This document shows positions 4,101 to 59,300 of a stretch of DNA of 64,000 nt, piece by piece. Made by a program: the position numbers and the translations under genes. Under the pieces are notes generated by a model that saw nothing but the letters and a program-made list of their open reading frames with translations, was not told the origin of the DNA and searched no databases. Source of the stretch: Eledone cirrhosa (Eukaryota); assembly GCA_964016885.1 (NCBI GenBank), contig OZ024743.1, positions 320,106,001 through 320,170,000 of the forward strand, given 5' to 3'. The number at the start of each line of letters is the position of its first letter. Within the stretch, counting starts at the first letter, position 1.

Positions 4101-6540
4101 CCTCTTGCACCCTCCTTCCTTATCCGCTAATCCCACACAGTCCCAGCGTGCAACTAAGATCCCGTTCCAGTCGCCCACTAACACTAAAGAGCGGGACGTT
4201 CCAAGAAAGGTCTCCAGACGCCGGAAGAAATCAGGCCGCCCTGCTCCTGTCGGGGCATAGACGGCCACTAGCCTGAAAGCTTGCCCGTCTCCGCTGGTCA
4301 CGTCCAGCACCACCAACATACCTTCTGGGTCCAGGAAGATGGCCCGTATGGCGAGATCTAAACCTTTCTGAAAAAGCACAGCAACTCTTCCCTCCGATCC
4401 AGGACGGCTGGGAGATGCGTACACATCGTAGCCGCCGAAAATCGGTACGAAGGTCCGTGCATCGGAGATACTGCTCTCGCTGATGGCCACTACATCTATG
4501 TTTAGTGACCTGAGGTAGTTGAGCAGGTGGTCCTGCTTCCATGATGACCCCAAGCCACGCGCATTTATGCTGCCTATTCTGAGTGATGTCATGTTGAAAT
4601 GGAGTGGAAAAGATGGGATAGACCACTTACCTTACTTCTCGTAGGGGAAGGATGGTTTTTCCATCCTTTTCACCGCTTCTGGCCGCCTCCGGAAGGATGT
4701 CCTTATAAATCCTCCTGGAGAGTGCTTGTCAGAAGTCTTCGATGTCTTTGGGGAATTTTTGTTTTAGTGTCGTGTACGTTTTCTGTGTGATGCGAGTGAT
4801 CTGTATATGTGGTGGTGGTGTGAACTTTTGGGTTGTTGTGTAGTCTTTTTCTGTGATACTGGTGTTGTGTTGGATGTAATGTAATAATTGGTTGTTGTTC
4901 AAATTTAATGTTGTGAGTGTGTATCGTTTTGGTTGTTTTTTTTGTTTGCGTTTGTTGTGGGTTTGTTTCTGTTTCGCTTTTTGGTGACTTTTGTGCTGTT
5001 GGTGATGGTGGTGTTGGGGTTAATGATGGTGATGGTGTTGGTGTTTGTGGTGATGGGGTTGGTGATGCTGGTGTGGATGGTGGCATAGCTGTCCTAACTT
5101 TTTTGTTTGATATTTTATGTGTTTCCCTCTGTATTTTGTTTTTGGAGGGGGGAGGAAGAGGATTTTTTTCATTTTTGCTTTCTTTTTCTTTGTTTTCTTT
5201 TTTCCTGATACCGTTTCCCACTCCTCTTGTCACAATCTATCTCCAGTTGCGATAGGTCGGGGAGTGGAAAATCCTCCATGGGCGTTGGTTTTGGTTGTGG
5301 CGTGGTGGATGGTGTAGGCGCTGGTGCTAGTTCTGGCGCGTTTTGGTGGTGGTGGTGTTGGTTTTGCTAGTGTTGCTGGGTTTGTTGCTGTTACAGTTGC
5401 TTCTGTTGTTGCTACTACATTTGTTAGTGCCATTTCTGCTGCTGGTGGTGTTGATGGTTGAGTCACTGTTGTGGGTAAGAGAGGTGGCCTCAACCTTTTA
5501 GCCTGAGGGCAGAAAGCCCTTAGGTGGGTTCCTTCACCATAAACGTCACACCTAGGCCTTCTGCCCTCGACGATTACGGTTAGGTGGCTGCCGTCAGTGA
5601 AGTCTATTACCTCTGGTATCTCCTCTTTTTGGTCTGCTTGGATCAGGAGCTCCATCCCAGATCCGGACCAGTTCTCTTGCTTTTCTTTCGCTATTTCGAT
5701 TATTTTGGTGCCAGGGAATTTCGATGGTCGGTGGAACGTGGGTCACCCTGATCTTCACGAGTCTCTGGCCACAATAGCTTGTGAAGTCGTCACTTCTTAA
5801 TGGGGCCATGGAGTGTTCTCTGGTCTCCTGTGGTGTTTCAAAGAACACGTCCACGGTTCCATATTTCTGCCCACGTCTGATGTGAGTTTTTTTTGCCCAC
5901 ACATGTCCCAAAGCTTTTTGGATTTGGGACTCGGATGCCAGTTCCACTCGGCGCGATTTTATGTTAATCGTCCGATAAGACACGGTGCATAGACGCCGAT
6001 GCTTCATTTTATTAGGTGGGGGTGAGGCTGACCATGTACCCATATTCCTTTACCATTCTTTTGGCTTCTTCTAATTCCTCCTGAGTTACCTGTATTGCTT
6101 CGCACTTTTTTGCTACTCTTGCAAAAGACAGGGTTTTCTTATTCTCATTATTGTTGTTGTTGTTATCGTTATTTTTGTTATTGTTAATTTTAGTTTCAGT
6201 TGTGGTTGTGGTGGCGTCAGTGGTATTCGGTGTGGAAGAGTTTATTCTGGGTGAATTCATTTCGATATCACGAGATAATTTATTTTTTTCTTTTGTTTCT
6301 GTTGTCGCTGTGGTGGTGGTGGGGGTGGCGGCTTCAACACTTGCAGTCATTGGTAATGGCGGAAATGAATGTCTGCCTGAGACAAATTTAAAATATTGCT
6401 ACTGCTTATATTTTTAGTGTTGGCAAACGTAGTAATATTTACAATGGTTGTGTCGGTGTGAGGTGTTAGTTTGTGAGGAAGGCTCTCAGCTACTTGGTTC
6501 AGCTGTGAGTCGGCCATGATTTTTCAAGAAAATTATTTTT
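1137..6540 (-). mobile_element. Near full-length Tx1/L1-clade LINE, copy A (disrupted ORF1 about 6517-4627, ORF2 4592-1381)
   Basis: APE motifs (SINARGL, LVGDWN, SRSYLDR, GPGYWKLN), RT motifs (NFRPITLLN, LDQSKAFD, QGCPLS, AYADD), ORF1 knuckle remnant (RPRCDVYGEGTHLRAFCP), AATAAA next to the (TAA)n. The 5' boundary is approximate. Confidence 0.92.
1381..4592 (-). pseudogene. Tx1 ORF2 (APE endonuclease-reverse transcriptase-CCHC), frameshifted
   Basis: Consecutive ORF pieces 3921-4592, 3105-3905, 2031-3065, 1867-2115, 1381-1662. Confidence 0.9.
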
Positions 6541-8382: not shown

Positions 8383-8503
8383 TGATGAGGGACTTATTGT
8401 ATTACATGTTATCCATGTGCTACCAGCAGTATTTTTCTCCCCATTTTATCACATATATTTACCTAAACTGCGATTCTGTTTTTTTCTCTCTCTCTCTCTC
8501 GCT

Positions 8504-8573
<70 letters not shown>

Positions 8574-9568: not shown

Positions 9569-9572
<4 letters not shown>
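8383..9572 (+). repeat. Head-to-tail about 2.1-mer of a 514-bp non-coding unit, flanked by (TA)n
   Basis: tgatgagggactt... starts at 8383, 8990 and 9504. The first unit is lengthened by a (CT)n expansion. Confidence 0.92.
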
Positions 9573-22582: not shown

Positions 22583-25500
22583 TAACCTTTGAAGGGAAAA
22601 CTTTCACCCACTCTATTAAAAATAACAAAAAGCTGATTAGGGTCCCTATACAAACTTATAGGTCCCTAAAAGAAACATTTGAAAAGGATGTGGGGAATTC
22701 CTGCATTAAACCACTTAACCGCGTCCTTCTCAAATGTCTCCCCACCCCAGACACCCCCATCCCACCAGGCACCCCTCCCCACCAAACATCTCTGTCCCCA
22801 CCCCGCCGGAAATCACCACCCACCCAGACAACCCCTCCAACACCCCCATGGAAATCGTGCAGCCTGGTCCCCTGGAGACGAAAAAGTGAGTGATTTCTTT
22901 TCCTCTTCTTTTAACTTTTCAGCACCAACATGGCTAACATAAGAGTTGGATGTGTGAACGTACGCCGCCTGGGGAAGTCCTGGAAACAGGTCAAACTCTT
23001 AAACGATCTCAGGTCGCGCACTATGGATGTAGTAGCCATTTGCGAGTCCAGGATCCACAGCGAGCGACATCTGGCCCACATCTTCGATGACTTTCAGATC
23101 TACGCATCTCTCTGTCAGCCGGGAGGTGGGGGCAGGGTTGCCGTTTTGCTGCTGAAACACCTGGACCTCGTAACACAGACGGTACATCTGGACCTGGAGG
23201 CTCGACTGGTGGTCCTAGACGTTGACGGTGGTGAAGGTGGAGCCTTCAGGCTGGTGGCCGCATATGCCCCATCCGGGACACCGCGTCCAGACATCTTCAA
23301 ACGTCTAGAGACTTTTCTGGGAACGTCCCGCTCCTTGCTTTTAGTGGGGGACTGGAATGGAATCCTAGATGCACGTTGGGACTATGTGGGCGCATGTCCC
23401 TATAATGGGGGGTGGGTGGGGGGGAGGGGGGGGGGGGGGTAACAACCTCAAACAGTTAATTGGCCGATTTGACCTGGCCGATATAGATTTTCCGACTGTG
23501 CAACTGTGGACGTGGACTAATCGTAGCGGAACATCTAGATCGTACCTAGATAGGGTTCTAGTTAGAAATAAGGATAGGGACATGTTAATCTGTCCACAAA
23601 TGTTCATGGTTGCTTATTCAGATCACAAACTTGTGACCTGCATGGTCAACCTTGATAGAACCCATAGACAAGGACCCGACTACTGGAAGCTGAACTTGTC
23701 CTTACCGACATGCAAAGCCTACAGTAGACGGATTAGCACTTTAGTTAAAGAACACTTGACAGGGGCCATTGTCAACAACAGATGGTGGTACTCTCTCAAG
23801 ATGGCAGTTACATTAGACTCGTTAGTTTTTAGTAAAGAATTAGCGTTAGATAGAAATAGGACCGAGAAGGAACAGGTAGATAAAGTAGAAGAGACAATTA
23901 GAAGTGGCAACGTAGCCAGTGTGGTAGCAACGAGAACGGCCTTGGACCAGTTCTTCGACGCAAAGCACAAGGGCTGCGTTGTCAGAAGCAAAATACGTGC
24001 TCTGGGTACGAGGGAGCCAAAGCTGTTAACTGGGCCCGCGTGACGGAGGGGAAAAGTGGAAACAAGTGCACGATTCGGTCTTTGAAGGACCAAGACGGAC
24101 GCGTGATACGTGAGCCGAAGCAGATGTGCGCGGCCTTTCAGCGGCACTTTGCTCAGCTGTTAGGGCAGGGCGGCGCGCCGGGAGGTGCTATGGATTTCGG
24201 TCCATACCTCGACGGCCTACCGCGACTATCCGACGGCAGGGCGAAGTTCTGCGAAAAGCCGATTTCAGCCGCTGAGATATAGGACGCGGTGAGCCAATGC
24301 GGCAAGCGCAAATCTCCAGGTCTCGACGGTCTACCCTACGAATTTTACGTAGCAATACCGGACTTGTTCTCCAGTCTCCTGAAACTGGCGGCATGACGGG
24401 AGAATTCTGAGTTCTGTGACCAGGGACGTAGACACACTAGCCACGAAATCCGAGAATAAGGGGGATGACATAGGCAACTTCCCGCCCATAACTTTGCTAA
24501 AAACAGAGTTACAGATTTTGGCCAAGGTGTTGGCAAAGAGGCTGGCGCTTGTCGTCGAAAACCTGGTGGGAGAAGCGCAGACATGCGCAATCCCGACCAG
24601 GTCTATACACGACAACCTCCACCTCATGCGATACATCCTAGAGAGGGTAGGGTGTAAACCTGGCTTCGGTGGGGCCTTGATCAACTTGGATCAGTCTAAT
24701 GCTTTCGGTAGGTTTGACAATCATTACCTGGATGCGGTGCTCGAGGCGGCAGGCTTCGGACCCGTGTTCAGGGACTGGATTGCTGCAATGCACAACAGCA
24801 ACATCTGCTCAAGGATCAAGGTGAATGGCTACCTCTCGGAGCCGTTCCATATCACGCGATCCATCCGACAGAGATGCGCTGTCTCCTCCCTTCTGTATGT
24901 ACTGACACTCGAGCCACTACTGCGGAAGTTGGAGCTATTGCAGGGAATCTCTCTAGAACCGGAACCGGGACTGCAAAAAGCGGCGTCGGCCTACGCCGAC
25001 GACGTCACAGTAATGGTGTCGAGCCCCTCGGAAATCGAGGAAGTCGGCACCTTACTGAAGGTATACGAAACGCTGACGTGAGCAAAACTAAACCCGGACA
25101 AGTCTGTCGGTTTGCAACTCGGTACGTGGAGAGGCAAGCCGATGACGTCTGATAGCGTCGAAGGACGCTGGACGGACGGACCGATGAAATTGCTCGGGGT
25201 CTGGTTCGGTCCAGACCTTCAGGTGGAGAAAAACTGGAACGAGATGACGGCCAAGGTGTTTGCACTCACCCAGAACTGGGCAGAGTGCAAACTATCCTTG
25301 AAAGGTCGAGCAGAGGTGGCGAACACTTTTATAGCGTCCGTCATCTACTACCGCTTGACCGTCGTGCCTTGTCCAGCCGAAACAATCACCAAAATGGAGC
25401 ACGCGCTCTTCCAATTCCTTTGGAAGAAGTGGGATCCTCTGGTGAGAAGATCCATCTGCTGGAAACACCCTGCCAACGGAGGGATGGGGATGACGTGGCT

Positions 25501-26474
25501 GATGATGCGAAAACACGCACTCAGGCTGCGGCATCTCTACGTATTCCTGACCGGACAACCTGACCGAGCTCCAGTCCTGGATCAAGCAAAGACCGAGGAA
25601 AATGTGCGACTGGCACATCGAATGTGCTCAGGCGCTCACAGCCCTATGGCAGGTGGACCCGGCGATCAGTGGAGACTCTACTTCGTCATTCTATAGAGGG
25701 TTGATACGCAGCAAGTGCGACGACGCGTTCGGAGAAACTCTAGGCGTAGAGGAAGACGAACTGACCCGTCTGTTCAGTAGGACCTTCCGCCCGGGACCGA
25801 TGGACAACTTGCAAAGGTCCCTGGCCTGGCAGTGCTACCGACGAACTCTACCAGTTCGAGACAAGCTCTACAGACATGGGCGCCCGGGCAGGGACCCTTC
25901 GAAAAAGATCTGTCCGGGTGACACCTACCCGGTTGACCACCGAGTCCATTGTCATGATCAAACCGCCACCCTCCTTCAAAAACGAAGGAGAGAGGCGGTT
26001 TTCCTTTGTGTGATAGCTATGGCGAAATAGGTTGTATGGTGGACGAGGTTTAAAGGGATGAGATCAGGCACCTTTCTCTCCGGCCAACAACTGATTCTTT
26101 TTTTCAAATACCACTTTGGAAGAAGAATCAGGATGGAGAGAGAGGTGCTGTACCCCAGCAAGTTTTATGAAAGGTGAGTGAAAGTGGCGAGAATGGCCCG
26201 AGTGAATGAGCCTTCTTTCTATATCAGCCTGTAGGTTGAGGAAAAAGAGGAAGAGTGGAAATGGGTACAAAGTCTTCGTACTCCTGGAGATGAGGGTTGC
26301 ACATTTTTTCGGGGGTATGTGTTACCCATATAAACTGTCTCCCCCTATTGGGGAAAATCGACTAACTTTTTAAATTGCATTCGCGATAACATTTTACACG
26401 TTTTTTATTGTATGTAAACTTCCCTCTTTGTATTTGTCCCCTTCTTTTGTACCCCTGTGACTAATAAAGAAACA
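22583..26474 (+). mobile_element. Tx1-clade LINE copy B, 5'-truncated (ORF1 tail + ORF2 22930-26234 + 3' UTR)
   Basis: MANIRVGCVNVRRL, LVGDWN, YWKLN, LDQSNAF, AYADD; AATAAA at 26463 followed by (ATCT)n. Confidence 0.93.
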
Positions 26475-32500: not shown

Positions 32501-32969
32501 CGGTTTTCCTCTGTACGGTGGCTATGGTGAAAGAAGTTATATGGTGAATGAGATTCAGAGGACTGAGGACAGATGCCTTTCTCTTCGGACAACAATTGAT
32601 TCCCTTCTTTAAGTATCACTTTAGAAGGAGAATCAGAATAGAGAGAGAGGCACTGCACCCCAGTAAATTTACTGAGAGGTGGGTGAATGAAGCGAAAATG
32701 GCCGAGTGATTGGGCCTCCTCTGTTTATAAGCCTGTAGGTTGAAGAAGAGAGCAAAAGGAAGAAAGGAGCACTTGCACAACACGCTCCTGGAGTTGAGGG
32801 TTGTTCTATCGACGGGGTATTAAACAACCCATTTGTTGCGCTTCCCCCCTATTGGTGATTTCGATGGTTGTAATTGTTTGTTTTTATATTTTTTACACGA
32901 CTGTATGTAAAATCCCCGGCATGTCTTTGTATTGTCCCCTTTTCTTGTCCGCCATTGTGGCAAATAAAG

Positions 32970-44030: not shown

Positions 44031-44049
44031 ATAGAGATAGATAGATATA

Positions 44050-47000
44050 TTTTTATTAGCCACAAGGGCGCACAAGAAAAGGGGACAATACAAATACAAA
44101 GGGGGAAGTTTACATATAAGAAAAACGTGTAAAATGTTATCACAAATGTAAGTTAAAAAGTTAGTCGATTTTCCCCAATAGGGGGAGACAGTTTATATGG
44201 GTAACACATACCCCCGAAAAAATGTGCAGCCCTCGTCTCCAGGAGTACGAAGAGTTTGTACTGCTTTCCTCTCCTCCTCCTTTTCCTCAACCTACAGGCT
44301 GATATAGAGAGAAGGCCCACTCACTCGGGCCATTCTCGCCACTTTCATCCACCTTTCATAAAACTTGCTGGGGTACAGCACCTCTCTCTCCATCCCGATT
44401 CTTCTTCCAAAGTGGTATTTGAAAAAAAGAATCAGTTGTTGGCCGGAGAGAAAGGTGTCTGACCTCAGCCCTTTCAACCTTGTCCACCATACAACCTCTT
44501 TCGCCATAGCTATCACACAAAGGAAAACCGCCTCTCCTTCGTTTTTGAAGGAGGGTGGCGGTTTGATCATGACAATGGACTCGGTGGTCAACTGGATTGG
44601 TCCCACCCGCGACAATAGTCGTTCTACATATCCCCACAGGTCAGTGACGCCCGAGCAGTGTATGAATGCGTGCGCGACGGTTTCTTCGTCTCGCACACAC
44701 CTCGGACAGATCTTTTTTGCAGGGTCCCTGCCCGAGCACCCATGTCTGTAGAGCTTGTCTCGAACTGGTAGAGCTCCTCGGTAGCACTGCCAGGCCAGGG
44801 ACTTTTAGAAGTTGTCCATTGGTCCTGGGCGGAAGGTCCTACCGAACAGACTGGCCAGTTCATCTTACTCTACGCCTAGAGTTTCACCGAGCACGTCGTC
44901 GCACTTGATGCGGATCAACCCTCTATAGAAGGACGAAGTGGAGTCTCCACTGATCGCCGTGTCCGCCTGCCAGAGGGCTGTGAGCGCCTGAGCACATTCG
45001 ATGTGCCAGTCGCCCATTTTCCTCGGTCTTTGTTTGACCCAGGACTGCAGCACGGTCAGCGAGACGAGTCGTGGGAAGGCTCGTCTCACGAACGGGGCCC
45101 ACGCCGGTTGTCCGGTGAGGAATACGTAAAGATGCCGCAGCCTTAGCGAGTGTTTGTGCATCGTTAACCACCGCATCCCCAGCCCTCCGTTAGAAGGGTG
45201 TTGGCAGCAGATGGATCTTCTCACCAAAAGGAGCTCGTCTCTTCCAAAGGAACCGGAAGAGCGCGCGTTCCATTTTAGCGAGCGTTTTGGCTGGACAAAG
45301 CACGACGGTCAAGCGGTAGAAGATGGCGGACACTATAACAGTTTTCACCACCTCCACTCGACCTTTCAAGGATAGTTTGCACTCGGCCCACTTCTGGGTG
45401 ACTGCAAACACCTTGCCGTCACTTCGTTCCAGTTCTTCTCCACCTGGAGGTCCGGACCAAACCAGATCCCGAGCAGCTTTACCGGTCCTTCCGTCCAGCG
45501 TCCGACGACGCCATCAGAAGGCATCGGTTTGCCTCTCCACGATCCGAGTTGCAAACCGATGGACTTGTCCCGGTTCAGCTTCGCTCCTGTGAAACTTTCG
45601 TATTCCTTCAGTAAGGTGGCGACTTCCTTGATTTGCGAGGCGCTCGACACCATTACTGTCACGTCGTCGGCGTAGGCCGACGCCGCTTTCCGCAGTCCCG
45701 GTTCCAGAGGGATGCCCTGCAATAACTCCAACTTCCGCAGTAGTGGCTCGAGAGTCAGTACGTACAGAAGGGAGGAGAGAGGGCATCCCTGTCGAATGGA
45801 TCGCGTAATATGGAACGGCTCCGAGAGGTAGCCGTTTACCTTGACCCTTGAGCAGATTTTGCTGTTGTGCATTGCAGCAATCCATCCCCTGAACACGGGT
45901 CCGAAGCCTGCCGCCTCGGGCACTGCATCCAGGTAACGATGGTCAAGCCTATCGAAAGCCTTAGACTGATCCAAGTTGATCAGGGCCCCACCGAAGCCGA
46001 GTTTACACCCTACACCTCTCTATGATGTATCGCCTGAGGTGGAGGTTGTCGTGTATGGACCTGGTCGGGATTGCGCATGTCTGCGCTTCTCCCACCAGGT
46101 TCTCGACGACAAGCGCCAGCCGCTTTGCCAACACCTTGTCCCAAATCTGTAACTCTGTGTTTAGCAGAGTTATGGGCCGGAAGTTGCCTATGTCATCCCC
46201 CTTATTCTCGTCCTTCTTGAATAGTGTGACCACGCCCCGGTTACAGAACTGGGAATTCTCCCGTTCTATTGCCAGATGCAGTAGACCGCTTCCAAGAGAC
46301 CGGAGAATAAGTCCGGTATTGCTACGTAAAATTCGTAGGGTAGACCGTCGAGACCTGGAGATTTGCGTTTGCCGCATTGGCTCAGCGCGTCCCCTATCTC
46401 AGTGGCTGAAATCGGCTTTTTGCAGAACTTTGCCTCGCTGTCTGAGAGTCGCGGTAGGCCGTCAAGGTATGGACCGAAATCCATAGCCTCTCTCGGCGCC
46501 CCCCCCCCCCACCGAACAGCTGAGCAAAGTGCCGCTGAAAAGCCGCACACATCTGCTTCGGCTCACGTATTACGCGTCTGTTATGGTCCTTCAAAGACAG
46601 AATCGTGGACTTATTGCCACTTTTTGCCTCCGTCACTCGGGCCCAGCTAACAGCTTTGGCTCCCTCGTTTCCCAGAGCACATATTTTGCTTCTGACAACG
46701 CAGCCCTCGTGTTTTGCGTCGAAGAACTGGTCCAAGGCCATTCTCGTTGCTATCACGCTGGCTACGTTGCCACTTCTAATTGCCTCTCCTACTTTATCTA
46801 CCAGTTCCTTCTCGGTTCTATTTCTATCTAACGCTAATTCTTTACTAAAAACTATCGAGTCTAATCTAACTGCCCTCTTGAGAGAGTACCACCATCTGTT
46901 GTTGACAATGGCCCCTGGCAAGTGCTGTTTAACTAAAGTGCTAATCCGTCTACTGTAGGCTTTGCTTGTCGGTAACGATAAGTTCAGCTTCCAGTAGCCG

Positions 47001-49882
47001 GGTCTTTGTCTATGGGTTCTATCCAGGTTGGCCATGCAGGTCACTAGTTTGTGATCTGAATAGGCAACCATGAGCATTTGTGGACAGCTTAACATGTCCC
47101 TATCCTTATTTCTAACTAGAACCCTATCTAGGTACGATCTAGATGTTCCGCTACGATTAGTCCACGTCCACAGTGGCGCAGTCGGGAAATCTAGTCGATA
47201 TCTATCGGCCAGGTCAAATCGGTCGATTAACTGTTTAAGGCTGTTACACCCCCCTTTATCAGGACATGCTCCCACATAGTCCCAACGTGCATCCAGGATT
47301 CCATTCCAGTCCCCCACTAAAAGCAAGGAGCCAGAAAAGTCTCTAGACGTTTGAAGAAGTCTGGCCACGGTGTCCCCGATGGGGCATATGTGGCCACCAG
47401 CCTGAAGGCTCCACCTTCACTACCGTCAACGTCTAGGACCACCAGTCGACCCTTCGGGTCCAGATGTACCGTCTGTGTTACGAGGCCCAGGTGTTTCCGC
47501 AGCAAAACGGCTATTCCGCCCCCACCCCCCGGTTGACAGAGAGATGAGTAGATCTCAAAGTCATCGAAGATGGGGGCCAGCTGTCACTCGCTGTGGATCC
47601 TTGACACGCAAATGGCTACCACATCCATACTGTGCGACCTGAGGTCGTTTAAGAGTTTGCCCTGTTTCCAGGGAATCCCCAGGCCGCGTACGTTCACACA
47701 TCCAACTCTTATATTGGCCATGTTGGTGCTGAAAATTTAAAAGAGGAAAATAGATCACTCACTCTTCGTCTCCTGGGGACCAGGCCGCACGATTTCCATG
47801 GGGGTGTTGGAGGGGTTGTCTGGATGGGTGGTAGTTTCCGGCGGGGTGCGGACGGAGATGTTGGTGGGGTGGGGTCTGGTGGGATGTGGGTGTCTGGGTG
47901 GGCAGACATTTGAGAAGGACGCGGTTGAGTGGTCACGCAGGAATTCCCCACATCCTTCTCAAGTGTTTCTTTTAGGGACCTATAATTTTGTATAGGGACC
48001 CTAATCAGTTTTAGCTTCAGTCTTTTGCTATTTTTAATAGAGTGGGCGAAAGTTTTCCCTTCGGTTTTCACCGAAGGGTCGTTCGTGATGGTCTCCATTG
48101 GTGTTTTGTTTTCAGTGTTTATGTAAGTGTAAGTGTAATTTTCTTGTGTTGTGTTTGTTTTTATCTGTAGTTCTTGTGTGTGCTTTCGTTTTGTTGTAGG
48201 TATTTTGTTTTCAGGAGGTGGGGGTTTTGTTTGTGATGTTTTTGTTGTTTGTGTTGGTGGTTGTATGTTTGTGGTAGTGTTTGCTGGTTTTTTGCTTTTG
48301 TGATGTCTTTTCTTTCTTTTCGAGCGATGGGGTTCTCCCTCGTCTTCACTGGGTGATGGCGAGATAGCCTCATCTGTTGTATCGTCTGTGTGATTGGGGA
48401 GCGGTATGTCTTGGGGAGCTGTTGTGGCTGTATGTGATTTTGCAGTGGTTTTAGCTGGAGTGGGGTTGGGTGGGACTGTGTTTGTTGTGGTTATTTTTGT
48501 GTGTTGGTGTTGTTGTTGTTGTGGTGGTGTTGGTGGTTGTATTGTTTTGATGGGTGTCGGCAGAAGAGCCTTTTTTTGGTTCATTAATTTAGGACAGGAA
48601 GCCCTCAGGTGACCCCTGCTAAAGCAATGGTAACATGAAGGCCGCCTACCCTCAACCGAAAAGTTTATGTAGGTGAGTCCGTCCAGGAGTACACGCTGTG
48701 GGATCATAGCTATTCGCTCTGGGCTCATTTGCACCAGAACTTAAATGCTAGTCCCATTGAATACATCTCTGGGGGACTTGCCTACTGACAGTATTCTGTC
48801 TTCATCAAAATTGATGAAGCCGCACAGTATCCACCATATGTTCACCTTTGGTGTGACACTCGTGATTCTGATCTTTTGTGTCATTTTTCCCATGTATGTA
48901 GGGAAAAAGGTGTACAGGTTGGATACAATTGGCGACACAGAGTAATTTTGGGCCGTCAATTGATCCTTCATGAGTACCGAAATACTCCCCAAAAATTTGC
49001 TTCTTTGAATGAATGCAATATCATTCATTGAAATTTTGAAAACCATTTCAATTTCTTTCTGTGACAATTGGACTGGTTTTCGGGTAGAATTGGAAACTGT
49101 CCTAAAAACTATCGTTTTGAGAGCAGTTTCCTTGCGAATTTCTACCGGAGAATTGATGTTGAAAGCACCATTTTTTTCGAAAGTGACATATCTCCTAGCG
49201 TCCTTTAAAAGTTGTTCAGCATTTGTTATGTCGAGATATATCAATTCCTCCTTTTTTTAACTTTCTCTGCAAAGGAGTGTCGGTGTCTTTGTGGAATCCG
49301 TGTTGTTGGTGTTGTCATTATTGTTGTTATTGTTGTTGTTATTCTTGTTGTCACCGATGTTGGTATTATTCGTATTTTCCTTGGTGTTGTTGTTGTCTTT
49401 GATGCTGGTGTTATTGGTGTTGTCTTTATTTTTTTCTTTGTTGTTGTTATCATTGTTGCTTTTATCATCATTATTGGTGTTGCTGTTATTTTTGTTGTCA
49501 TTGAATTTTTTGCTGTCATTTGTGTTGTTTGGATATTAATTCGTTTTTACATTTTCATTTCGTCTTTCCATCTCTAGAGTATCTAGTGAAGAAGACGTTG
49601 TTGACTGCGAGCTTAATAGTCTTACCGCCTCTCCAACACCATTATCATTGGACGCAGCGTTCGTAACGTAATCAAACTTTTACAATATTTTTTCAAAGAT
49701 TCGATGGAGAAAAAATATTTCAAACGGATATTTCGCCCCTGTAGGGGCGAAAATGAGTTGACCCACCACCTGAAGGTCCAGACGGGGAGACAAGTTACAC
49801 AATAATATAAAATTTAACTGAAAACTCACGTTTTCTTCTTACATAAATTAACGGAAACTTCTCCGCGAAGTTACACACGTCT
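44050..49882 (-). mobile_element. Full-length Tx1 copy F (ORF1 about 49650-47755; ORF2 47721-44292), close relative of copy B
   Basis: CYHCFSRGHLRASCP knuckle; APE, RT (QGCPLS, AYADD) and CCHC all present; 5' end AGACGTGTG; GATA repeats on both sides. Confidence 0.95.
44292..47721 (-). pseudogene. Tx1 ORF2 of copy F, multiple frameshifts
   Basis: ORF pieces 47317-47505, 46394-47368, 46003-46377, 45366-45974, 44865-45227, 44292-44696. Confidence 0.9.
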
Positions 49883-49938: not shown

Positions 49939-50902
49939 TGTTTCTTTTATTTGCCACTAGGGCATCAAAAGTGGGACAAGTACAAAGGGGGGAGTTTACA
50001 CAAAAAGGCGTCCTCAATAAGGAGGAGGCAATAACAAAATATAAAAATAAAATAAGATATAACAAAAAATAAAATTTTTAACAAAATCCTCAATAGAGAG
50101 GAGGCGCCTTGGGGGGTCGCACACACCCCCGAAAAAAGTGTGCAACCCTTCTCCTCAGGAGCACAGAGAAGGGGTGCTGCCTTGGTCTTTCATCTTCCTC
50201 ACCTATAGTCTGATGTAGAGTGAAGGCCCATTCACACGGGCCATTCTCGCCACTTTCACCCATCTTTCATAGAAACGGCTGGGGTGCAGCACCTCTCTCT
50301 CCATCCTGATCCTTCTACCGAAATGATATCGGAAGAAACGGACCAGTTGTTGGCCAGAGAGAAAGGTGCCTGACCTCAGTCCTTTCAGACGCGTCCACCA
50401 TACAACCTCTTTCGCCATGGCTATCACGCACAGAAACACCGCCCCTGCTTCATCTTTGAAGGGGGGAGGCGGCTTGATCATCACAATAGACTCGGTGGTC
50501 AACCGGATCGGTCCCACCCTTGACAGCAGTTGTTCGACATAGCCCCACAGATCGGCTACGCCCGAGCAGTGTACCAATGCGTGTGCAACGGTTTCCTCGT
50601 CAAGTACAATGTCCTACCGAACAGGCTGGCCAGTTCGTCCTCCTCCATGTCTAGGGCTTCTCCGAGGGCGTCGTCGCACCTGCTGCGTACCAGCCCTCTA
50701 TAGAATGTTGTGGTGGAGTCTCCACTGATAACCGGATCCGCCTGCCAGAGGGCGGTGAGCGCATGGGCACACTCAGTGTGCCAGGCGCCCAGTTTTCTCG
50801 GTCTTTGCTTGACCCAGGATTGACCGAGAAAACTGGGCGCCTGGCACACTGAGTGTGCCCAGGCGCTCACCGCCCTCTGGCAGGCGGATCCGGTTATCAG
50901 TG

Positions 50903-50904: not shown

Positions 50905-50965
<61 letters not shown>
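50903..50965. repeat. (GATA)n spacer
   Basis: Direct inspection. Confidence 0.97.
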
Positions 50966-53900
50966 TTCTTTATTTACCATAAAGGCATAAAAAGAAGGGA
51001 CAAATACAAAGGGGGAGTTTACATACAATCGAGTAAAAAGGGTATAACATGAAAATAATCGAAAATAACCTCAAAAGGGAGGGGACGTGATGGGGGTTGC
51101 ACACACCCCCGAAAAAGTGTGCAATCCTTTGCCCGGGGAGCACATGGAGAAGGTGCTCCCCTCTCCTTTACTTCTTTACCTACAGGATGGTATACAGAGA
51201 AGGCCCATTTACACGAGCCATTCTCGCCACTATCACCCACCTTTCATAAAACTGTCTGTGGCCAAGCACCTCTCTCTCCATTCTTATCCTTCTTCCGAAG
51301 TGATATCGGAAGAAGTAGACCAGATTATGGCCAGATAGGAAGTTGCCTGACCTCAGACCTTTCAATCGTGTCCATCAAACAACCTCTTTCAACATGGCTA
51401 TTACGCACAGAAAAACCGCCTTTGCTTCCTTTGTGAAGAGGGGAGGCGGTTTGATTGTCATCACGGACTCGGCGGTCAATTTAATCGGCGCCACCCGCAA
51501 CAGCAGTCGTTCGGCGTAGCCCCACAGATCAGCCACGCCCGGACATTGCACCAATGCGTGCGCAACGGTTTCTTCGTGACGCACGCATCTAGGGCAAATC
51601 TTTTTTGAGGGATCCCTGCCCGGGCGCCCGTGTCTGTAGAACCTCTCTCGAACGGGTAGAGCCCCTCGGTAGCACTGCCAGGCCAGTGACTTCTGGAAGT
51701 TGTCCATTGGTCCTGGGCCGAAATTCCTACCGAACAGGCTGGCCAGTTCGTCTTCCTCCATGTCCAGCGACTCTCCAAGGGTGACATCGCCCCTGCTAGC
51801 CACCAGCCCTCTATAGAATGATGAGGTGGATTCTCTACCGATGGCCTGGCCCGCTTGCCAGAGAGCCCTGAGCGCCTGAGCACACTCAGTGTGCCAGTCT
51901 CCCAGTTTTCCGGATCTTTGCTTGACCCAGGACTGTAGCTCGGTGAGCGAGACGAGTCTCGGAAAGGCTCGTTTTACGAACGGAGCCCACACCGGTTGAC
52001 CAGTGAGGAATACCTGTAGGTGCCTAGCCTTAATGCTTGCCTACGCATCATCAACCACGGCATCCCCAGCCCTCCTTTCGAAGGTTGTTGGCAGCAGATG
52101 GATCTTCTCACCATAGGAGGGCGCTTCTTCCAAAGAAATTGGAAGAGCATGCGTTCCATGGTGGTGAGTGTTTCCTTAGGGCAAGGCACGACAGTCAGGC
52201 GGTAGTAAGTGACGGACGCTATGTAAATGCTCGCCACCTCCGCCCAGCCTTTTAGGGACAGCTTACACTTGGCCCATTTCTGGGTTAGTGCAAACACCTT
52301 GTTCGTAATCTCGTTCCAGTTCTTTTCCACCTGGAGGTCCGGTCCAAACCAGACCCGAAGCAACTTTACCGGGTCCTCCGTCCAGTGTCCGACGACACAG
52401 TCGGGAGGCATCGGTCTGCCTCTCCACGTTCCGAGTTGCAGCCCGATGGATTTTTCCCGGTTCAGTTTCGATCCTGACAACCTTTCGTAATCCTCCAGTA
52501 AAGTACCGATCGCCTCGATCTCCGAGTCGGTCGATACCATTACTGTTACGTCATCGGCGTAGGCCGACACCGCTTTGCTCAATCCTGGTTCCAGGGGGAT
52601 ACCCTGCAACAACTCCAACTTCCTCAGTAAAGGCTCGAGAGTCAATACGTACAGAAGGGAGGAGAGAGGGCACCCCTGTCGAATGGATCGTGTGATTTCG
52701 AACGGCTTCGAAAGGTAGCCGTTCACCTTGATCCTAGAACAGATGTGGTTGCTATGTAAGGCAGTGATCTAGCCTCTGAAAACAGGACCGAACCCAGCCG
52801 CCGCTAGCACCGCATCCAGGTAACCATGGTCGACCCTATCGAAGGCCTTAGACTGATCCAAGTTGATCAGGGCCCCACCGAAGCCGGGTTTGTTGCCAAT
52901 CCTCTCTATGATGTATCGCATGAGGTGGAGGTTATCGTGAATGGACCTGGATGGGATAGCACATGTCTGCGCATCTCCCACCAGGCCACCCACAACAAGC
53001 GCCAACCTCTTGGCTAACACCTTGGCCAAAATATTTAACTCTGTGTTTAGCAGGGTTATGGGCCGAAAATTATTTATACTATCTCCTTTGTTCTCGTCCT
53101 TCCCCACCAGCGTGACTACGCCCTTGGCTACAGAACAAGGAATTCTCCCGTTCTCCTGCCAATTGCAGTAGACCGCTTCGAGGAGTTCGGAGAAGAAGAC
53201 CGGCATTGCTAAATAAAGTTCGTAAGGTATACCATCGAGACCTGGAGATTTGCGTCTGCTGCATTGGCTCAGCGCATCTCCGATCTCATCAGCCGAGATT
53301 GGTCCCTCGCAGGACTCCGCCCCATCGCTCGAGAGACGCGGTAGGCCGTCGAGGTATGGACCGAAATCCACGTCCTCGCCCGGACCTCGGCCTCCCCCGA
53401 ACAATCGGGCAAAGTGCCTTTGAAAGGCTTCGCACATCTGCTTAGGCTCCCGGATCACCCGTCCATCTTCGTCTTGCAACGAACGGATGGTGGATAGATT
53501 TCCACTCTTAGCTTTTCTGGACAGCTCAATATGTCCCTATCCTTACTTCTAACTAAGAATCTATCTAAGTACGATCTAGATTGACCACTGTGGTTTCTCC
53601 AAGTCCAGGTAGGCACAGTTGGAAAATCTAGTCGATATCTATCGACCAAGTTAAAACGGTCGAGTAACCCCTTGAGGCTGTTACACCCCCCTCTATTAGG
53701 ACATGCTCCTGCATAGTCCCAACGTGCATCCAGGATGTCATTACAATCCCCCGCTAGAAGCAGGGAACGCGACGTTCCCAGAAAAGTCTCTAAACGCTAG
53801 AAGAAGTCGGGCCGTTCAGCTCCGAAAGGGGAGTAGACGGCGACCAGTCTTAAGGCCGCACCTTCACTACTGCCAACGTCTAGCACCAACAAACGACCCT

Positions 53901-56303
53901 CCGGGTCCGAGTGCACAACCTGTACGGCAAGACCCAGGTGTTTTTGCAGCAGTACGACAACCCCACCCCCACCTCCAGGTTGACAGAGAGATGCATGCAC
54001 CTCAAAGTCATCGAAGGTAGGGGCCAGCTGCCGCACGACGCTGATCCGAGTCTCACAGATAACCATTACATTTATACCACATGACCTGAGGTCATTTAGA
54101 AGCTTTGCTTGCTTCCAAGTCGAGCCCAGGCCACGTGCATTCAAACATCCTACTCTTAACACATCCATGTGGGTGGCAGAGCCAAAGGAGAGTGTAGAGA
54201 CCTACCTTTCCGCTTCCCGGGGTTCGGGTCGCACGACTTCCATGGGGTCGGGGGTGATGGGTGAAGGGGTGTCTTGTGGTGGTGTGGGGTCGTCAGTGTG
54301 TGGTGGGGTTGGGGTGTTTGGAGTTGTGTTGGGGAGTTAGTAGGACGCGGTTTATGGTGGTCCTACGTCCTCCTTAAAATCCTATTTTAGTTTTTGGTAG
54401 AGGTTCATTGGGATCTTTATTAATTTTAAATGTGGGTAGTTATCTGAAGAAACAAAGTTTACACCTTCGGTTTGTACCGAAGGATTATTGTATATGAGTT
54501 CATTTAATTTATTATTGTTTCTGTTGATGTAAGTATAGTGTAATGTCTTTTTTTCGGATGGTGTGAGTGTTTCGAAGAGGGGAGGGGCAGGTTTGGTTTT
54601 GTTTGTTGCTGGAGGGGTGTTTTCTGTTTTGTTGGATTGTGTTGAGATTTGGGTGGGGGTTGTTTGGCCTTGTGTGTTTTGCACATGTTTTCTTTGTTTC
54701 CTTTTAATCTGTCTGAAGGACTCCGTTACTTCCTCCGAATTCGTTGGGTTATCTTCAGTGTTGGAGGGAAGAGGTATGTTTGCTGGTAAAGTTTCCGTGT
54801 TGGTTTTCTTTGTGGGAAAGATGGATGTCACTATGTTAGACTGTGTTGTGTGTTGTGTCTGCGGTGGTTGTGTTGTTTTATTGAGTGAGGGGTTGGGTGG
54901 GCCTGTATTTTGTTTTGGGGTAATGTGTTGTGACTGTTTGTGTTGTGGTGGTGGTGTAGTTTTACTGAGGGGCGGGTTGGGTGGGACTGAGTTTTGTTGT
55001 TTGTTTATCTGTTGTGGTGGTGGTGGTGGAGCTGGTGTTGGTAGCAGGGTTTTCTTTTTGTTGAATTGGGGACAAGCGGCCTTCAGGTGCCCTCTGCCTG
55101 CACAGATATGACAGGATGGCCTTCTCCCCTCCACGCTAATGTTTATATACCCGTGGCCCTCTAATAGGATTCTGTCGGGTATGTGGGCGATGAGTTCAGG
55201 CTTCATTTGCACTACCAGCTCTATACCTGTTCCACTGAACGCATTGTCTATGGTTTTCCCAATGGAAATCACGTTGTCATTCACTGGATCGATGAAGCCA
55301 ACTATGAGCCAGCAGTAGTCCACATCTGGCATCATTGCATCCAGCCATATGCGTTGAGTTCTTTTCCCCATATAAGATGGATAAAAGGTAAAATTTTTCG
55401 AACGAATCGGTGACAAAGCACATTTTTTTGCCGCCGATTCGTTCTTCATAATAATTGCTAGGCTTCCATAGAGTCTGTCTTTTCTTATGAAAGTGGTTTC
55501 ATTAAGTACTTCTGTGAGTACTGTTTTGATATCTGCTTGAGAAGGCTGTTCAGGTTTTTTTTGAAGTGTTATTGATGGTGCGGAACACGACCGTTCTACT
55601 TTCAATGTCTTTGGTGAGTTCTTGAGGCATTTTAACCGATAAAATACCATTCTCTCCTTCAGTTATGTATTGTTTGGCGTCTGTGATTCTTCGTGCCACA
55701 TCTGAAATATTATCAGGTATATATGTCAAAGATTTCTTTGTTTTTTGTGCAAATGAAATCTTGACTCTGTCGTCTGCTTTGCTTTCTGTTATGGTGTTAT
55801 TTTCAAATGTTATTTTTGTGTTTGTTGTGTCTTTGTTTGTGGTGTTAGTATTGTCATGCAATTTTTCAAATTTTTTTTTTTCGTTGTTGGAATCCATGTC
55901 CAGATTTGTGTTTTCGTCATTTTTCTCCGCAGATTCGTCTGTTTTTATTTTGTTTTTTCCTTCCTTCTCCATGACGTTAGTTGGGAAGGAAGGGGGGACT
56001 AAAGCGTGCGAGCTTACAACTCTTACCGCTGTCCCCCACCACTGTTTTCGTTCGCTTCGTTTAACATTTCTGTCAGAAGATAGAAAAAAAAATTTTTTTG
56101 TTGCCACAAAATTTAAAAAAACAGGTTTTTTACCTATAGGAGGGGTAAAAATGAGCTGACCCACCGTCTGACAGTTCAGACGGGGGGTCAAGCTACACAA
56201 TAGTATCAAAATTAAATTTGAACTCACAAAATTTCCGCAATAAATTTGAACAAAACTTCTGCGCGAAGTGAATTACATCCACACTGTAGAACAGACGACA
56301 GCT
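50966..56303 (-). mobile_element. Full-span Tx1 copy H (ORF1 about 56100-54202; ORF2 54168-51180, internal deletion near 53510)
   Basis: CHICAGRGHLKAACP; MDVLRVGCLNARGL; RT motifs; CPRCVRHEETVAHA. Confidence 0.95.
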
Positions 56304-56309
56304 TGATTG

Positions 56310-56388
<79 letters not shown>
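56310..56388. repeat. (GATA)n spacer
   Basis: Direct inspection. Confidence 0.97.
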
Positions 56389-59300
56389 TTCTTTATTTGA
56401 CACAAAGGCTCACAAAAAAAGGGAAAGATGCTGGCGGTTTGATCCTTACTATCGACTCGGCAGTCAACTGGTTTTGTCCCATACGCGACAGCAGTTGTTC
56501 TGCATAGTTCCACAGGTCGGTTACGCCCGTGCAGTCTACAATTGCGTGCAGGACTGTTTCAATGTCCTGTGCGCATCTTGGACACGTCCTCTTGGAAGGA
56601 TCCTTGCCGAGGCGTCCGTGCCTGTAGATCTTGTCACGAACTGGTAGAGCTCCGCGGTAGCACTGCTAGGCCAGGGACCTCTGGAAGTTGTCCATAGGTC
56701 CCGGGCGGAAAGTCCTACCAAACAGACTGGTGAGCTCATCGTCTTCGACGCCCAGAGTCTCTCCTAGCACGTCGTCGCGCTTGTAACGTACAATCCCTCT
56801 ATAGAATGTCGATGTAGAGTCTCCAGTGATTGCTGCCCCCGCTTGCCAGAGGACTGTGAGCGCCTCAGCGCATTCAATGTGCCAGGCGCCCATCGTTTTC
56901 GGTCTTTTCTTGACCCATGACTGCAGCTCCGTCAGTGAGACGAGCTGTGGGAAAGCCTGTCTCACAAACGATGCCTACATCGGTTGGGGGTCGGTGATGC
57001 CCAGCCCTCCGTTGGAAGGGTGCTGGCAGCAGACGGATCTCCTCACCAGCTCCTTCCGCAGAAACTGGAAGAGTATGCGTTGCATCTTGGCGAGGTGTTC
57101 ACGGGGACAAGGCACGACAGTCAAGCGGTAGTAGATGACGGGCGCTATGAAAATGTTCGCCACCTCCGCTCGACCTTTCAAGGACAGTTTGCACTCTGCC
57201 CACTTCTGGGTGAGCGCAGACACCTTGGCCGTGACCTCGTTCCAGTTTTTCTCCACCTGGAGGTCTGGACCGAACCAGAACCCGAGCAATTTCACCGCTC
57301 CGTCCGTCCAGCGTCCAACGACGCTGTCGGAGGTCATCGGTTTGCCTTTTCCTCTCCACGTCCCGAGTTGCAAACCGACAGATTTGTTTGGGTTTACTTT
57401 TGCTCCCGTCAGCGTTTCGTATTCTTTCAGTAAGTTGCCGATCACCCCGATTTCCGAGGTGCTCGAGACCATTACTGTAACGTCGCTTTGAGAACCGCTT
57501 CCAAGTATCGATGGTCAACCCTATCGAATGCCTGAGACTGATCCAAATTGATCAGAGCCCCACCGAAGCCGGGTTTACTACCCACCCTCTCAATGATGTA
57601 TCGCGTGAGGTGGAGGTTGTCGTGTATGGACCTGGTCGGGATTGCACACGTTTGCGCTTTCCCTACCAGGTTCTCGACGACAAGCGCCAGTCTCGTCACT
57701 AGCACCTTGGCCAAAATCTTTAATTCTGTGTTGAGCAGAGTTTTGGTCCCGAAGTTGTTAATTTCGACCACCTTGTTCTCGTCTTTCCTGATCAGCATTA
57801 CTACGCCCTTGCCTGCAGAACTGGGAATTCTCCTGTTCTGCTGCCAATTGCAGTAGACGGCTTCGAGGACGCCAGAGGACAAATCCGGCACGCCTATGTA
57901 AAACCGTTTCTCAGTGTCCGTGATCGGTCTTTCGCAGAACTTGGCGTCCGTGTTCGAGAGACGCGGCAGGCCGTCGAGGTATGAACTAAAGTCCTTTGCC
58001 CCGTTAGGTTCACCGTCGTTCTGCTCAAACAGTCGCGCAAAGTGCTGCTGAAAGGTCGCGCATATTTGCTTGGGGTCAAGTAGCCCGCGTCCGTTTTGGT
58101 CTTTCAAAGACCGAATCGTGGACTTGTTGCCACTTTTTGCCTTCGCCACTCGGGCACAGCTGACAGCTTTCGCTCCTTCGTTTCCTAGATCACGTGTTTT
58201 GCTTCTGACCACGCAGCCTTCGTGTTTTGCATCGAAGAACTGGTCCAGTGCCGTTCTCGACGCTAACATTCTAGCCGCGTTGCCACTTCTAAGTGCCTCC
58301 ACTACCTTGGCTATTAGTTCTCTTTCTATTTTGTTTTTCTCTAAGGCTAACTCTCTGCTAAACCCTATCGATTCTATTTTAATTGCTTTCTTGAGAGTGT
58401 ACCACCATCTATTGTTGACGATGGCTCCCGTTAACTCTTGCTTGACTAATCTAGTTATCCTTTCACTGTAAGCTTTATGTGCCGGCAACGTCACGTTCAG
58501 CTTCCAGTATCCGGGTCCCTGTCTATGTGTTCTATCACGGTTGACTAAGCAGACGACTAATTTGTGATCTGAATAGGCAACCATGTGCATTCGTGGACAG
58601 CTTAACATCTCCTTGTCTCTTTCTAAAATGAAGAACCTATCTAAATACGATCTAGATGTCCCGCTGCGGTTTGCCCACGTCCACTGTGGTGCAGTCGGAA
58701 AATCCAGTCGATACCTATCGGCCAGTTGGAATTAGCCGATTAAAGTTTTGAGGCTGTTGCACCCCGCTCTACTGGGACATGCTCCCACATAGTCCCATCG
58801 TGCATCTAGGATACTATTCCAGTCCCCCCACTAAAAGTAAGGAGCGAGACGTTCCCAGAAAAGACTCTAGACGCTAAAAGAAGTCTGGCCGTGATTGCGA
58901 TTGCCCGGTCCGGGTATAAACGGCCACCAGTGTGAAGGCTTCACCCCCAATACTGTTCACGTCTAGGACTACCAGTCTACCCTCCGGGTCCAAATGTACT
59001 TGCTGTTCTTCGACGTCCAGGTTCTTCCGAAACATGACAGCCACTCCACCTCCACCTCCTGGCTGACAGAGAGATGCGTAGATCTCAAAGTCGTCAAAGA
59101 TGGGGGATAGTTGCTGCCTGTTGTGGATCCTGGACTAGGTGATGGCTATTACATCCATACTGTGTGACCTAAGGTCGTTTAAAAGTTGGCCCTGTTTCCA
59201 GGGCATCCCTAGGCCACGCACATTCACGCTTCCAACTCGTAAACTAGCCATGTTGGTGAAGAAGAGTTGAGAAAAGGGACGAAAAGTGCACTTACCTGTT

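Follow-up and report, generated by a model that had tools for sequence, protein, structure and literature searches.

A U1-type 5' splice site at the ORF1/ORF2 junction of L1/Tx1-like LINEs in Eledone cirrhosa and a candidate route to an ORF1-only mRNA

The five junctions considered here lie in members of an L1/Tx1-like LINE clade that is present in high copy number and targets (TCTA)n, and at each of them a sequence resembling a strong 5' splice site lies at the end of ORF1. An earlier note on this DNA had proposed that such sites are under selection for U1 binding. Good support for selection on such a U1-type site now comes from the retention of the site in different reading phases, from its rank in pairing with U1 and from its presence in a sister lineage, from another host, whose ORF2 is 40% identical to that of the clade. 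This U1-complementary donor may well be used to splice part of the transcripts to a predicted acceptor 180-250 nt above the terminal poly(A) signal.

Elements and donor sites in the window

The window is the whole stretch of 64,000 nt that was analysed, and the elements that carry the five sites are as follows.

1143..4673, minus strand: element A, aligned part (junction, ORF2, 3' UTR), with ORF1 continuing to about 6100
22591..26472, plus strand: element B, aligned part (ORF1 end, ORF2, 3' UTR)
44046..49602, minus strand: element F, near full length, ORF2 broken
50965..56308, minus strand: element H, close to full length and bordered by (TCTA)n/(GATA)n, with a broken ORF2
56423..60053, minus strand: element I, aligned part, ORF2 rearranged

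In a Pfam search the ORF2 of locus L031 matches RVT_1 and Exo_endo_phos above cut-off and zf-RVT just below it (27 vs 27.5 bits), and the atlas clusters matching ORF2 represent all three families. The separate upstream ORF1 comprises 590-710 codons; its match to zf-CCHC in Pfam is weak and below cut-off (E 0.005-0.3), atlas CCHC clusters are related to it at 0.90-0.91, and a search for ORF1 homologues returned none at E 0.001 or better. No match was obtained when L413, L431 and L031 were searched against Rfam. The Tx1 label is that of the earlier note and is consistent with an apparent APE-RT-zf ORF2, a CCHC-type ORF1 and a repeat target. Having two ORFs and an APE endonuclease, with no LTR seen, the elements do not belong to copia. 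(TCTA)n adjoins element ends in the window copies and in fetched loci, as an informal observation, and A-type copies end in (ATT)n. Six of the first 30 endonuclease-motif matches proved to be an unrelated non-coding repeat and were dropped.

Donor-type 9-mers, previously claimed for A, B, F, H and I, are present in all five elements (a slash marks the putative splice point).

4625..4633, minus strand: donor A, AAG/GTAAGT; ORF1 stop TAA at +2..+4; ORF2 ATG at 4592
22883..22891, plus strand: donor B, AAA/GTGAGT, decayed copy; ORF1 stop TGA; ORF2 ATG at 22930
47757..47765, minus strand: donor F, from a phase-1 subfamily in which the second TGA, at +6..+8, ends ORF1; ORF2 ATG at 47721
54200..54208, minus strand: donor H, AAG/GTAGGT; ORF1 stop TAG; ORF2 ATG at 54168
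59290..59298, minus strand: donor I, CAG/GTAAGT; ORF1 stop TAA; ORF2 ATG at 59251
54168..54199, minus strand: pyrimidine-rich inter-ORF spacer of H with the ORF2 start, as an example

Measured against the 5' splice site consensus, MAG/GTRAGT, the sites score 9 (A), 8 (B), 7 (F), 8 (H) and 9 (I) out of 9. Counting both strands of the window there are only three perfect sites, two of which are A and I, and 25 that score at least 8. The spacing from donor GT to ORF2 ATG, 38 (A), 44 (B), 41 (F), 37 (H) and 44 nt (I), and the pyrimidine-rich character of the spacers (69-79% pyrimidine) likewise agree with what had been described. The spacers of A, H and I contain no AG, and that of B closes with TTTTCAG, an acceptor-like sequence located 7 nt before the ORF2 ATG.

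That the ORF1 stop lies within the donor hexamer is correct for B, H and I, for which it had been claimed, and is true of A as well, but not of F, where the stop is 4 nt beyond. The indels that A and F were thought to need are superfluous: the local frame of A already closes with LREVR on the TAA within the donor, an ending shared by intact A-type ORF1s (704 and 714 codons; L238, L239), and in the F subfamily the second TGA, 4 nt further on, is the genuine ORF1 stop, as in the intact 616-codon ORF1 of L235. F-type copies give about 570 pattern matches, mostly intact, and because their ORF1 stop falls beyond the donor hexamer a rule of G+stop+GT is too narrow. The window copies of B and F are slightly decayed, the family forms being GAG/GTGAGT and AGG/GTGAGT, respectively.

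Donor conservation and pairing with U1

The genome's own U1 genes start ATACTTACCTG. When all GT sites in nine elements with open ORF2 (247-269 sites each) are ranked by pairing with this U1 5' end, the ORF1-end donor is placed first in seven and second in two, and the motif is probably bound by U1.

The donor persists in 18 subfamily copies that between them represent three reading phases, namely phase 2, phase 1 (at three separate places in a tree of subfamily copies built on 600 nt, with row P175 partly unaligned) and phase 0, where ORF1 reads through the donor; the ORF1 stop falls beyond the hexamer in F', N and O and 36 nt further on in M. Positions -1, +1, +2, +5 and +6 are invariant in 9/9 subfamilies, as compared with 60 of 250 four-fold sites (24%) that serve as a neutral yardstick in the same nine. 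A hairpin that hides the donor was considered and rejected: donor-spacer pairing is predicted in most copies, but a shuffled spacer pairs equally well (mean z -0.63, with 12/18 below zero) and the pairing therefore reflects composition only.

In the sister lineage the donor, AAG/GTAAGT, follows the ORF1 stop by one base and precedes the ORF2 ATG by 13 nt. It is present in 71/71 junction readings (from overlapping loci) and, in one element, is the first of 333 GT sites for U1 pairing. A donor that is kept over several phases here and that follows the stop in the sister lineage is more than a side effect of the stop codon. The sister ORF2-start pattern has no match in the E. cirrhosa genome, a sister-type protein used as query retrieved own-clade elements only, and a first metagenome scan and a viral scan found nothing. 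Among 50 distant L1/Tx1-like loci only two have such a donor (0.59 expected), and it is therefore not a general L1/Tx1 trait.

Candidate acceptors and the fate of the RNA

Acceptor-like sequences are found near the 3' ends of the elements, at the end of ORF2.

51180..51205, minus strand: candidate acceptor of H; AATAAA 208 nt on (50974)
44292..44317, minus strand: ORF2-stop candidate acceptor of F, with AATAAA (44057) 237 nt beyond it
32713..32738, plus strand: acceptor-like ORF2 end of a 5'-truncated I-type copy (29554-32969)
50203..50228, minus strand: acceptor-like ORF2 end of a short K-type 3' fragment

In H the pyrimidine-rich end of ORF2 leads to the stop TAG, which supplies the AG of the candidate, and a G and a purine-rich stretch follow. 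When about 100 YAG sites are ranked by pyrimidine tract the AG of the ORF2 stop is first to third in 7/9 own elements; the stretch after it is 63-93% purine, and the distance to AATAAA is 208-254 nt across the clade. The sister lineage has a candidate of its own in 4/4 elements, a non-coding tract with an invariant TAG, ranked first to third of 122-128 and 178-209 nt above AATAAA. The candidate in N262 ranks only eighth, ORF2 of subfamily A closes with TAA, without an AG at that position, and the own-clade pyrimidine tract also encodes protein (PSLY). Purines often follow stop codons for other reasons. A stop occurs no more than three codons past the AG, in the phase of the donor, in 10 of 15 subfamily copies, where 5.7 would be expected (p 0.014 assuming uniform phases and 0.04 by permutation, kinship of the copies being ignored), and the early stops of the phase-1 N clade are three different ones. 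In 5 of the 15 the predicted splice would add 27-95 residues to ORF1p.

Splicing from the ORF1-end donor to the 3' acceptor would remove ORF2 whole and leave a short ORF1-only mRNA, with unspliced RNA serving as the template both for reverse transcription and for ORF2 translation, the latter likely through termination-reinitiation. With the junction located at the ORF1 stop, ORF1p would be left complete and the transcript would be spared a junction lying a long way downstream of the stop, the feature that usually provokes nonsense-mediated decay. ORF1p would then be in excess over ORF2p. We infer acceptor use, the ORF1-only mRNA and its purpose from the sequence.

In subfamily M an ATA overlaps the ORF1 stop in 625 copies and no copy has another base there; these 625 copies are without an ORF2 AUG, and ORF2 is still under selection. 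Coupled reinitiation at ORF2 is described for human L1 (PMC11485995). This deep invertebrate L1/Tx1-like lineage may in effect be a two-exon gene in which all of ORF2 is a retained intron, an independent invention of the copia type in non-LTR elements, with ORF1p made from its own spliced mRNA and ORF2p produced from the unspliced RNA by AUG-dispensable reinitiation.

Retrocopies joined exactly at the donor, which the earlier note had put forward as a check, were not found in targeted genome searches covering the subfamilies other than O and P. Beside 3,754 intact exon-end+donor matches there are no joins of the ORF1 end to the purine-rich exon, and no precise joins occur among 39, 20, 14, 0, 16, 10 and 8 disrupted or acceptor-side matches, so that spliced genomic copies of the SpIRE type are absent from these searches. 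Several candidate joins were rejected: L203 is a 130-nt deletion one base off GT-AG, a single case that microhomology explains equally well, L407 is no more than a short piece, the deletions in L464 and L466 affect the end of ORF2 and are non-canonical, and L450 has a 1-nt insertion. Contigs from X1, X2, X5 and X6 (run kind unrecorded, rare forms dropped), aligned to H over stretches that stop short of its 3' end, show neither a joint nor a loose end at the donor. One X5 contig crosses the H donor unspliced, and a skip of 5545-5814 in X1 begins with TG and not with the donor; these contigs are given no weight for or against splicing. A short RNA with a native 3' end should be easy to copy, provided that trans-mobilisation is at least modest, and the missing retrocopies therefore count against the splice. 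The proposal of a copia-like ORF1-only mRNA has thus gained a candidate acceptor in both lineages and is without a spliced retrocopy.

The alternative that survives best, although we consider it rather unlikely, is that U1 binds without productive splicing, either blocking cleavage and polyadenylation within the A-rich terminal part of ORF1 or helping Pol II through an intronless unit; full-length RNA would result, and the ORF junction would be the only place free for such a site. The same donor conservation fits this explanation, as does the lack of spliced retrocopies, and ORF1 is 36-43% A with AATAAA 220-440 nt above the donor in 7/9 elements. However, the number of upstream AATAAA motifs is about that expected by chance for 40% A (an estimate from composition), and in 2/4 sister elements the 800 nt above the donor contain none. 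In its favour the sister lineage carries a second GTRAGT 14 nt past the ORF2 stop, but AATAAA is absent from ORF2 in 9/9 own and 4/4 sister elements, and the acceptor-like sites are left unexplained. U1 does both jobs in Arabidopsis EVD (PMC5580714), and protection by U1 can therefore coexist with splicing to the candidate acceptor.

It is improbable that the motif is a translation signal aiding reinitiation at ORF2 and resembles a donor by coincidence. It is always found 13-52 nt above the ORF2 start, and the overlapping ATA of subfamily M points to coupled reinitiation; against this, the distance to the start varies four-fold, the variation of the motif follows the donor consensus (A/G at +3 and +4), the site tops the U1 ranking, and the own 18S rRNA has no perfect complement to the 8-mers, GTAAGT or GTAGGT, with one match for GTGAGT. 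Largely refuted, and more improbable still, is the view that an Arg codon, a stop codon and common descent suffice to produce the motif. All own-genome elements are indeed related (ORF2s 67-88% identical to each other) and G-TAG-GT recurs at most ORF2 ends, but the motif persists where the stop comes later than the hexamer, as in F', N, O and M, or, as in the sister lineage, earlier than the GT, and its five invariant positions contrast with the neutral 24%. Finally, an intron of 28-61 nt ending at the first AG after the donor would drop the ORF1 stop and fuse ORF1 to ORF2, as has precedent in Ogre. Its AG is in frame in the five window copies and several subfamilies, but such an intron is scarcely credible and was rejected as a general mechanism on frame and on the retrocopy searches. 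The first AG is out of frame in the intact subfamilies F', M and N262 and in one I copy, and the RNA, carrying the RT sequence in cis, would be expected to give rise to intronless copies, of which the searches found none beside the 3,754 intact. The ORF2 ATG context is conserved, and in the sister lineage the spacer measures 13 nt and the stop precedes the donor.

Implications and comparison with known systems

Splicing to the candidate acceptor would bear on how bicistronic LINEs set a large excess of ORF1p over ORF2p, and the donor bears on how a long intronless LINE RNA escapes premature 3' processing. An ORF1-end donor shared by lineages only 40% alike suggests that some LINEs recruit U1 on purpose, and at least 3,754 intact strong donors over a 3-Gb genome may affect host transcripts too. 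In HIV-1 the major splice donor suppresses an upstream poly(A) site, and the donor described here may likewise act via U1 on a nearby upstream poly(A) signal, although HIV-1 is a retrovirus with one defined site and the upstream AATAAA motifs here are scattered and not conserved in position.

ORF2 translation is not fully understood even for human L1 (PMC11485995), and splicing is regarded as harmful to L1 (PMC5860796); we found no description in the literature of a LINE splice of the copia type that removes ORF2. Human L1 SpIREs similarly involve splice sites within the RNA of an L1-type LINE, but they use harmful donors in the 5' UTR and, for one class, spliced retrocopies amount to ~1.8% of full-length L1s (PMC5860796), whereas the present donor sits where ORF1 ends, shows conservation that suggests usefulness and has no retrocopies that we could find. 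Kibi, Koshi and crocodilian Tx1 are microsatellite-targeting LINEs of the Tx1 clade (PMC4494074) and share with our elements an APE-RT-zf ORF2, a CCHC ORF1 and insertion into microsatellites, the target here being (TCTA)n; the excerpted text of that paper makes no mention of a splice site at their ORF junction.

Closer parallels come from LTR elements. In Arabidopsis EVD and the shGAG RNA of plant Ty1/copia elements U1 both splices and blocks premature termination (PMC5580714), again from a conserved U1-like donor at the border of structural and enzyme regions. There, however, a short intron is coupled to termination early in pol, while the LINE ORF2 is without AATAAA and the predicted acceptor is near the 3' end of the element. 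In Drosophila copia a splice removes the whole pol region (PMC5580714, citing Yoshioka 1990), so that in both cases the enzyme region would be spliced out whole, about 3 kb there and a predicted 3.5-3.7 kb here, and the remaining RNA would encode only the structural protein. Copia is a single-ORF LTR element that needs the splice to make the gag stop; these LINEs, in contrast, are bicistronic and non-LTR, with an ORF1 stop already present and a splice that is predicted.

Setting of the LINE Family

The window lies in an animal genome of 3.0 Gb whose 18S rRNA is ∼2.87 kb, a length typical of cephalopods, and it consists of nested LINEs piled up among microsatellites, with an APE-RT ORF2 in each of its five elements (A, B, F, H and I). 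In intact relatives ORF1 runs to 590-710 codons and includes a weak CCHC knuckle, ORF2 measures ∼1,140 residues, and the 3' end carries AATAAA, lacks a poly(A) tail and adjoins (TCTA)n. Genome-wide, the endonuclease start motif gives 18,588 matches vs 115 with a reversed control, and 24 of the first 30 matches inspected are LINEs of the family; loci L097, L098, L100, L101, L110 and L111 belong to an unrelated, apparently non-coding repeat that matches the pattern by chance.

Full-length elements also occur in head-to-tail trains, of single or mixed subfamilies, with short (TCTA)n runs between them (loci L031-L032 at G000:C1:348914000-348933999, L112-L115 and L239). Near-identical copies of the five window junctions are found ∼300 kb downstream in inverted order (G000:C4:320445881, 320451706, 320458675, 320483184 and 320500986), which places the window within a large segmental duplication of inverted orientation. 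Copies L197-L231 form a recombinant subfamily in which the B ORF1 end is joined to a short end and an ORF2 that are both K-type, a product of template switches from one subfamily to another close to the junction; some have a duplicated ORF1 tail. The 3' UTRs (e.g. L031:9110-9330) hold inverted repeats and motifs conserved across subfamilies, possibly a structure recognized by the RT. Decayed ORF pieces at 11356-12866, 19119-20789, 33530-34522 and 61538-61948 of the window are, as we presume by eye, of Penelope-type RT/GIY-YIG origin; a Pfam scan of 33530-34522, the one of the four scanned, gave no match.

The U1-Type Site at the ORF1/ORF2 Border

Donor-like sites had been described in the earlier note at all five window junctions, and each is confirmed. 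The further statement that A and F need an indel is incorrect, as A stops inside the donor and the subfamily of F at a second TGA; a stop inside the donor is thus found in phase-2 subfamilies such as A, but not in F or in M, where ORF1 passes through the donor in phase 0 to a stop 36 nt downstream. Relative to ORF1 the donor is in phase 2 in H, A, B, I, J, K, P, Q, R and S and in phase 1 in F', O and the N clade, which occupy three separate places in the tree, the phases of decayed copies B, K178, R185, Q176 and N166 being taken from terminal-peptide homology and not from the longest open frame. Subfamily letters other than A, B, F, H and I are designations introduced in this analysis.

The donor is intact in 23 of 24 junctions sampled by their order in the genome. 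Matches out of nine to the donor consensus MAG|GTRAGT were scored for 217 distinct contexts of the motif, a set that takes in loci picked for a broken donor and six unrelated repeats: 176 score 8 or 9, 28 score 7 and 13 lower. Eighteen copies were picked as subfamily representatives, with ORF2 DNA 71-96% identical to that of one of them; 17 score at least 8 and one scores 7, and with a nineteenth copy added the count is 18 of 19 vs 0.26 expected from ORF2 windows. Across the nine elements whose ORF2 is open, 60 of 250 four-fold sites are invariant, yet donor positions -1, +1, +2, +5 and +6 are all unchanged and +3 and +4 are A or G only. The 5' end of the genome's U1 genes is canonical; ranked for pairing with it among the 247-269 GT sites of each element, the junction site comes first in seven of nine elements and second in two.

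A protein with 40% ORF2 identity led to 39 loci of a sister lineage (L411-L449), intact L1/Tx1-like LINEs in tandem arrays with a period of about 6.4-6.8 kb, within a genome record that bears the title of a bacterial MAG and that we infer to hold animal host DNA. Here a single G separates the ORF1 stop from a perfect donor, which lies 13 nt upstream of the ORF2 ATG and lacks a pyrimidine spacer. All 71 readings from overlapping loci agree on this, and this donor is the top U1 partner among 333 GT sites. Because the copies are mutually close (84% four-fold invariance) they count as one independent lineage. A second GTRAGT lies 14 nt past the ORF2 stop (L413:7979-7987, with counterparts throughout L411-L449); a pyrimidine run comes after it and, about 37 nt further, TAG.

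After removal of near-duplicates, only 2 of 50 distant L1/Tx1-like loci (25-38% identity) have the donor, vs 0.59 expected, making it a trait of the own clade and its sister and not of the whole group. L304 and L350, two distant L1/Tx1-like elements on metagenome contigs, have a strong donor 35-40 nt upstream of the start of the ORF2 match, that of L304 overlapping the ORF1 stop as in the own clade. Judged from sequence, this LINE lineage has a real and deeply conserved U1-type site where ORF1 gives way to ORF2.

Candidate Acceptors, Retrocopies and Alternative Roles

In the mechanism that we prefer, which we consider about evenly balanced between right and wrong, the donor would be used in part of the transcripts to splice out ORF2, giving an ORF1-only mRNA, and ORF2 would be made by reinitiation on unspliced RNA. 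Of 51 distinct 3' ends, 48 have TAG as the ORF2 stop, with a pyrimidine-rich run before it and G plus a purine-rich stretch after it, and among about 100 YAG sites the AG of this stop ranks first to third in seven of nine elements and eighth in N262, the exception being subfamily A, which stops at TAA. In all four sister elements an invariant TAG preceded by a pyrimidine tract outside the coding region takes first to third place among 122-128 sites, and the candidate acceptors of both lineages lie 178-254 nt upstream of the terminal AATAAA. Among 26 distant ORF2 ends, no more than 1-2 have a TAG with a similar tract (one as counted, with L284 and L350 at the 0.67 limit and L300 passing). A stop at most three codons past the own-clade AG, in the donor's own phase, is seen in 10 of 15 copies vs 5.7 expected (p 0.014-0.04, relatedness of the copies being ignored); in the other five the predicted splice would lengthen ORF1p by 27-95 residues.

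Spliced RNA copied back into the genome would be recognized by a precise join at the donor. Such retrocopies, which the earlier note had proposed to look for, were not found with patterns for B, H, I, J, K, N, M, A and F' or from the acceptor side, each pattern missing some possible junctions. The exon ends of B, H, I, J and K have an intact donor at 3,754 matches, and altered-downstream patterns gave 39 and 20 matches, all inspected, comprising the recombinant subfamily, F-type copies, small indels and one 130-nt deletion (L203) that is one base off a GT-AG join. The N, M, A and F' patterns gave 14, 0, 16 and 10 matches and the acceptor-side pattern 8, none with a join, and a genome search with a purine-rich second-exon pattern gave 0. 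Within the reach of these patterns, the absence of joins rules out splices that retain ORF2; it also counts against an RNA for ORF1 alone, save under a strict cis preference.

Binding of U1 without splicing is a less probable explanation, if still one of weight, and it need not compete with splicing, since the two can coexist, as in EVD (PMC5580714). ORF1 is 36-43% A and has AATAAA 220-440 nt upstream of the donor in seven of nine elements, at roughly chance frequency, and no AATAAA occurs in the ORF2 of any of the 9 own or 4 sister elements, so that protection by U1 would be limited to upstream action or to non-canonical sites. What probability remains falls to other uses, such as splicing to acceptors outside the element. 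We consider a translation signal improbable, and a by-product of coding and ancestry a little more so, as the donor is kept across three ORF1 phases and in the sister lineage. A short fusion intron is rejected as scarcely credible: running from the donor to the first AG, it keeps the frame in the window copies but not in intact F', M and N262, and intronless progeny would be expected.

The spacers of B-, F-, R- and S-type copies (window 22892-22929 and 47756-47722) and of N262 (L262) close with a strong acceptor-like YAG a few bases upstream of the ORF2 ATG. It ranks top in F' and N262, and five 5' regions showed no conserved donor upstream of it.

ORF2 Translation and Known Systems

In most subfamilies the ORF2 ATG has a conserved CAACATG-like context. 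In subfamily M (L157, L159, L233 and L241; G000:C1:11265460 and 624 more, at least 625 copies) ORF2 starts with ATA overlapping the ORF1 stop, with 625 matches and 0 for any other base there, and its first Met lies downstream of the first endonuclease motif. Variants shared among 8 copies number 15 synonymous vs 9 non-synonymous, well above the roughly 1:3 ratio of neutrality. Since ORF2 is open past the ATA (1,141 codons in L157, 1,142 in L159) and the shared variants are mostly synonymous, it is likely translated without AUG, which fits the reinitiation on unspliced RNA of the preferred mechanism. AUG-independent ORF2 translation is reported for human L1 in a review (PMC11485995).

No description of a splice donor at the ORF1 end of Tx1 or other non-LTR elements, or of a spliced ORF1-only LINE isoform, was found in literature that did not extend to subscription journals and Repbase reports. 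Six papers retrieved on the inter-ORF region concern human L1. Background parallels are the HIV-1 major splice donor, which suppresses an upstream poly(A) site, and Ogre for a fusion intron; nonsense-mediated decay is commonly triggered by a junction well downstream of the stop. The proposed mechanism is plausible, and would be a LINE variant of an already known strategy. For EVD, U1-dependent splicing and U1 binding without splicing are described side by side (PMC5580714), and the two roles of U1 could coexist in these LINEs in the same manner.
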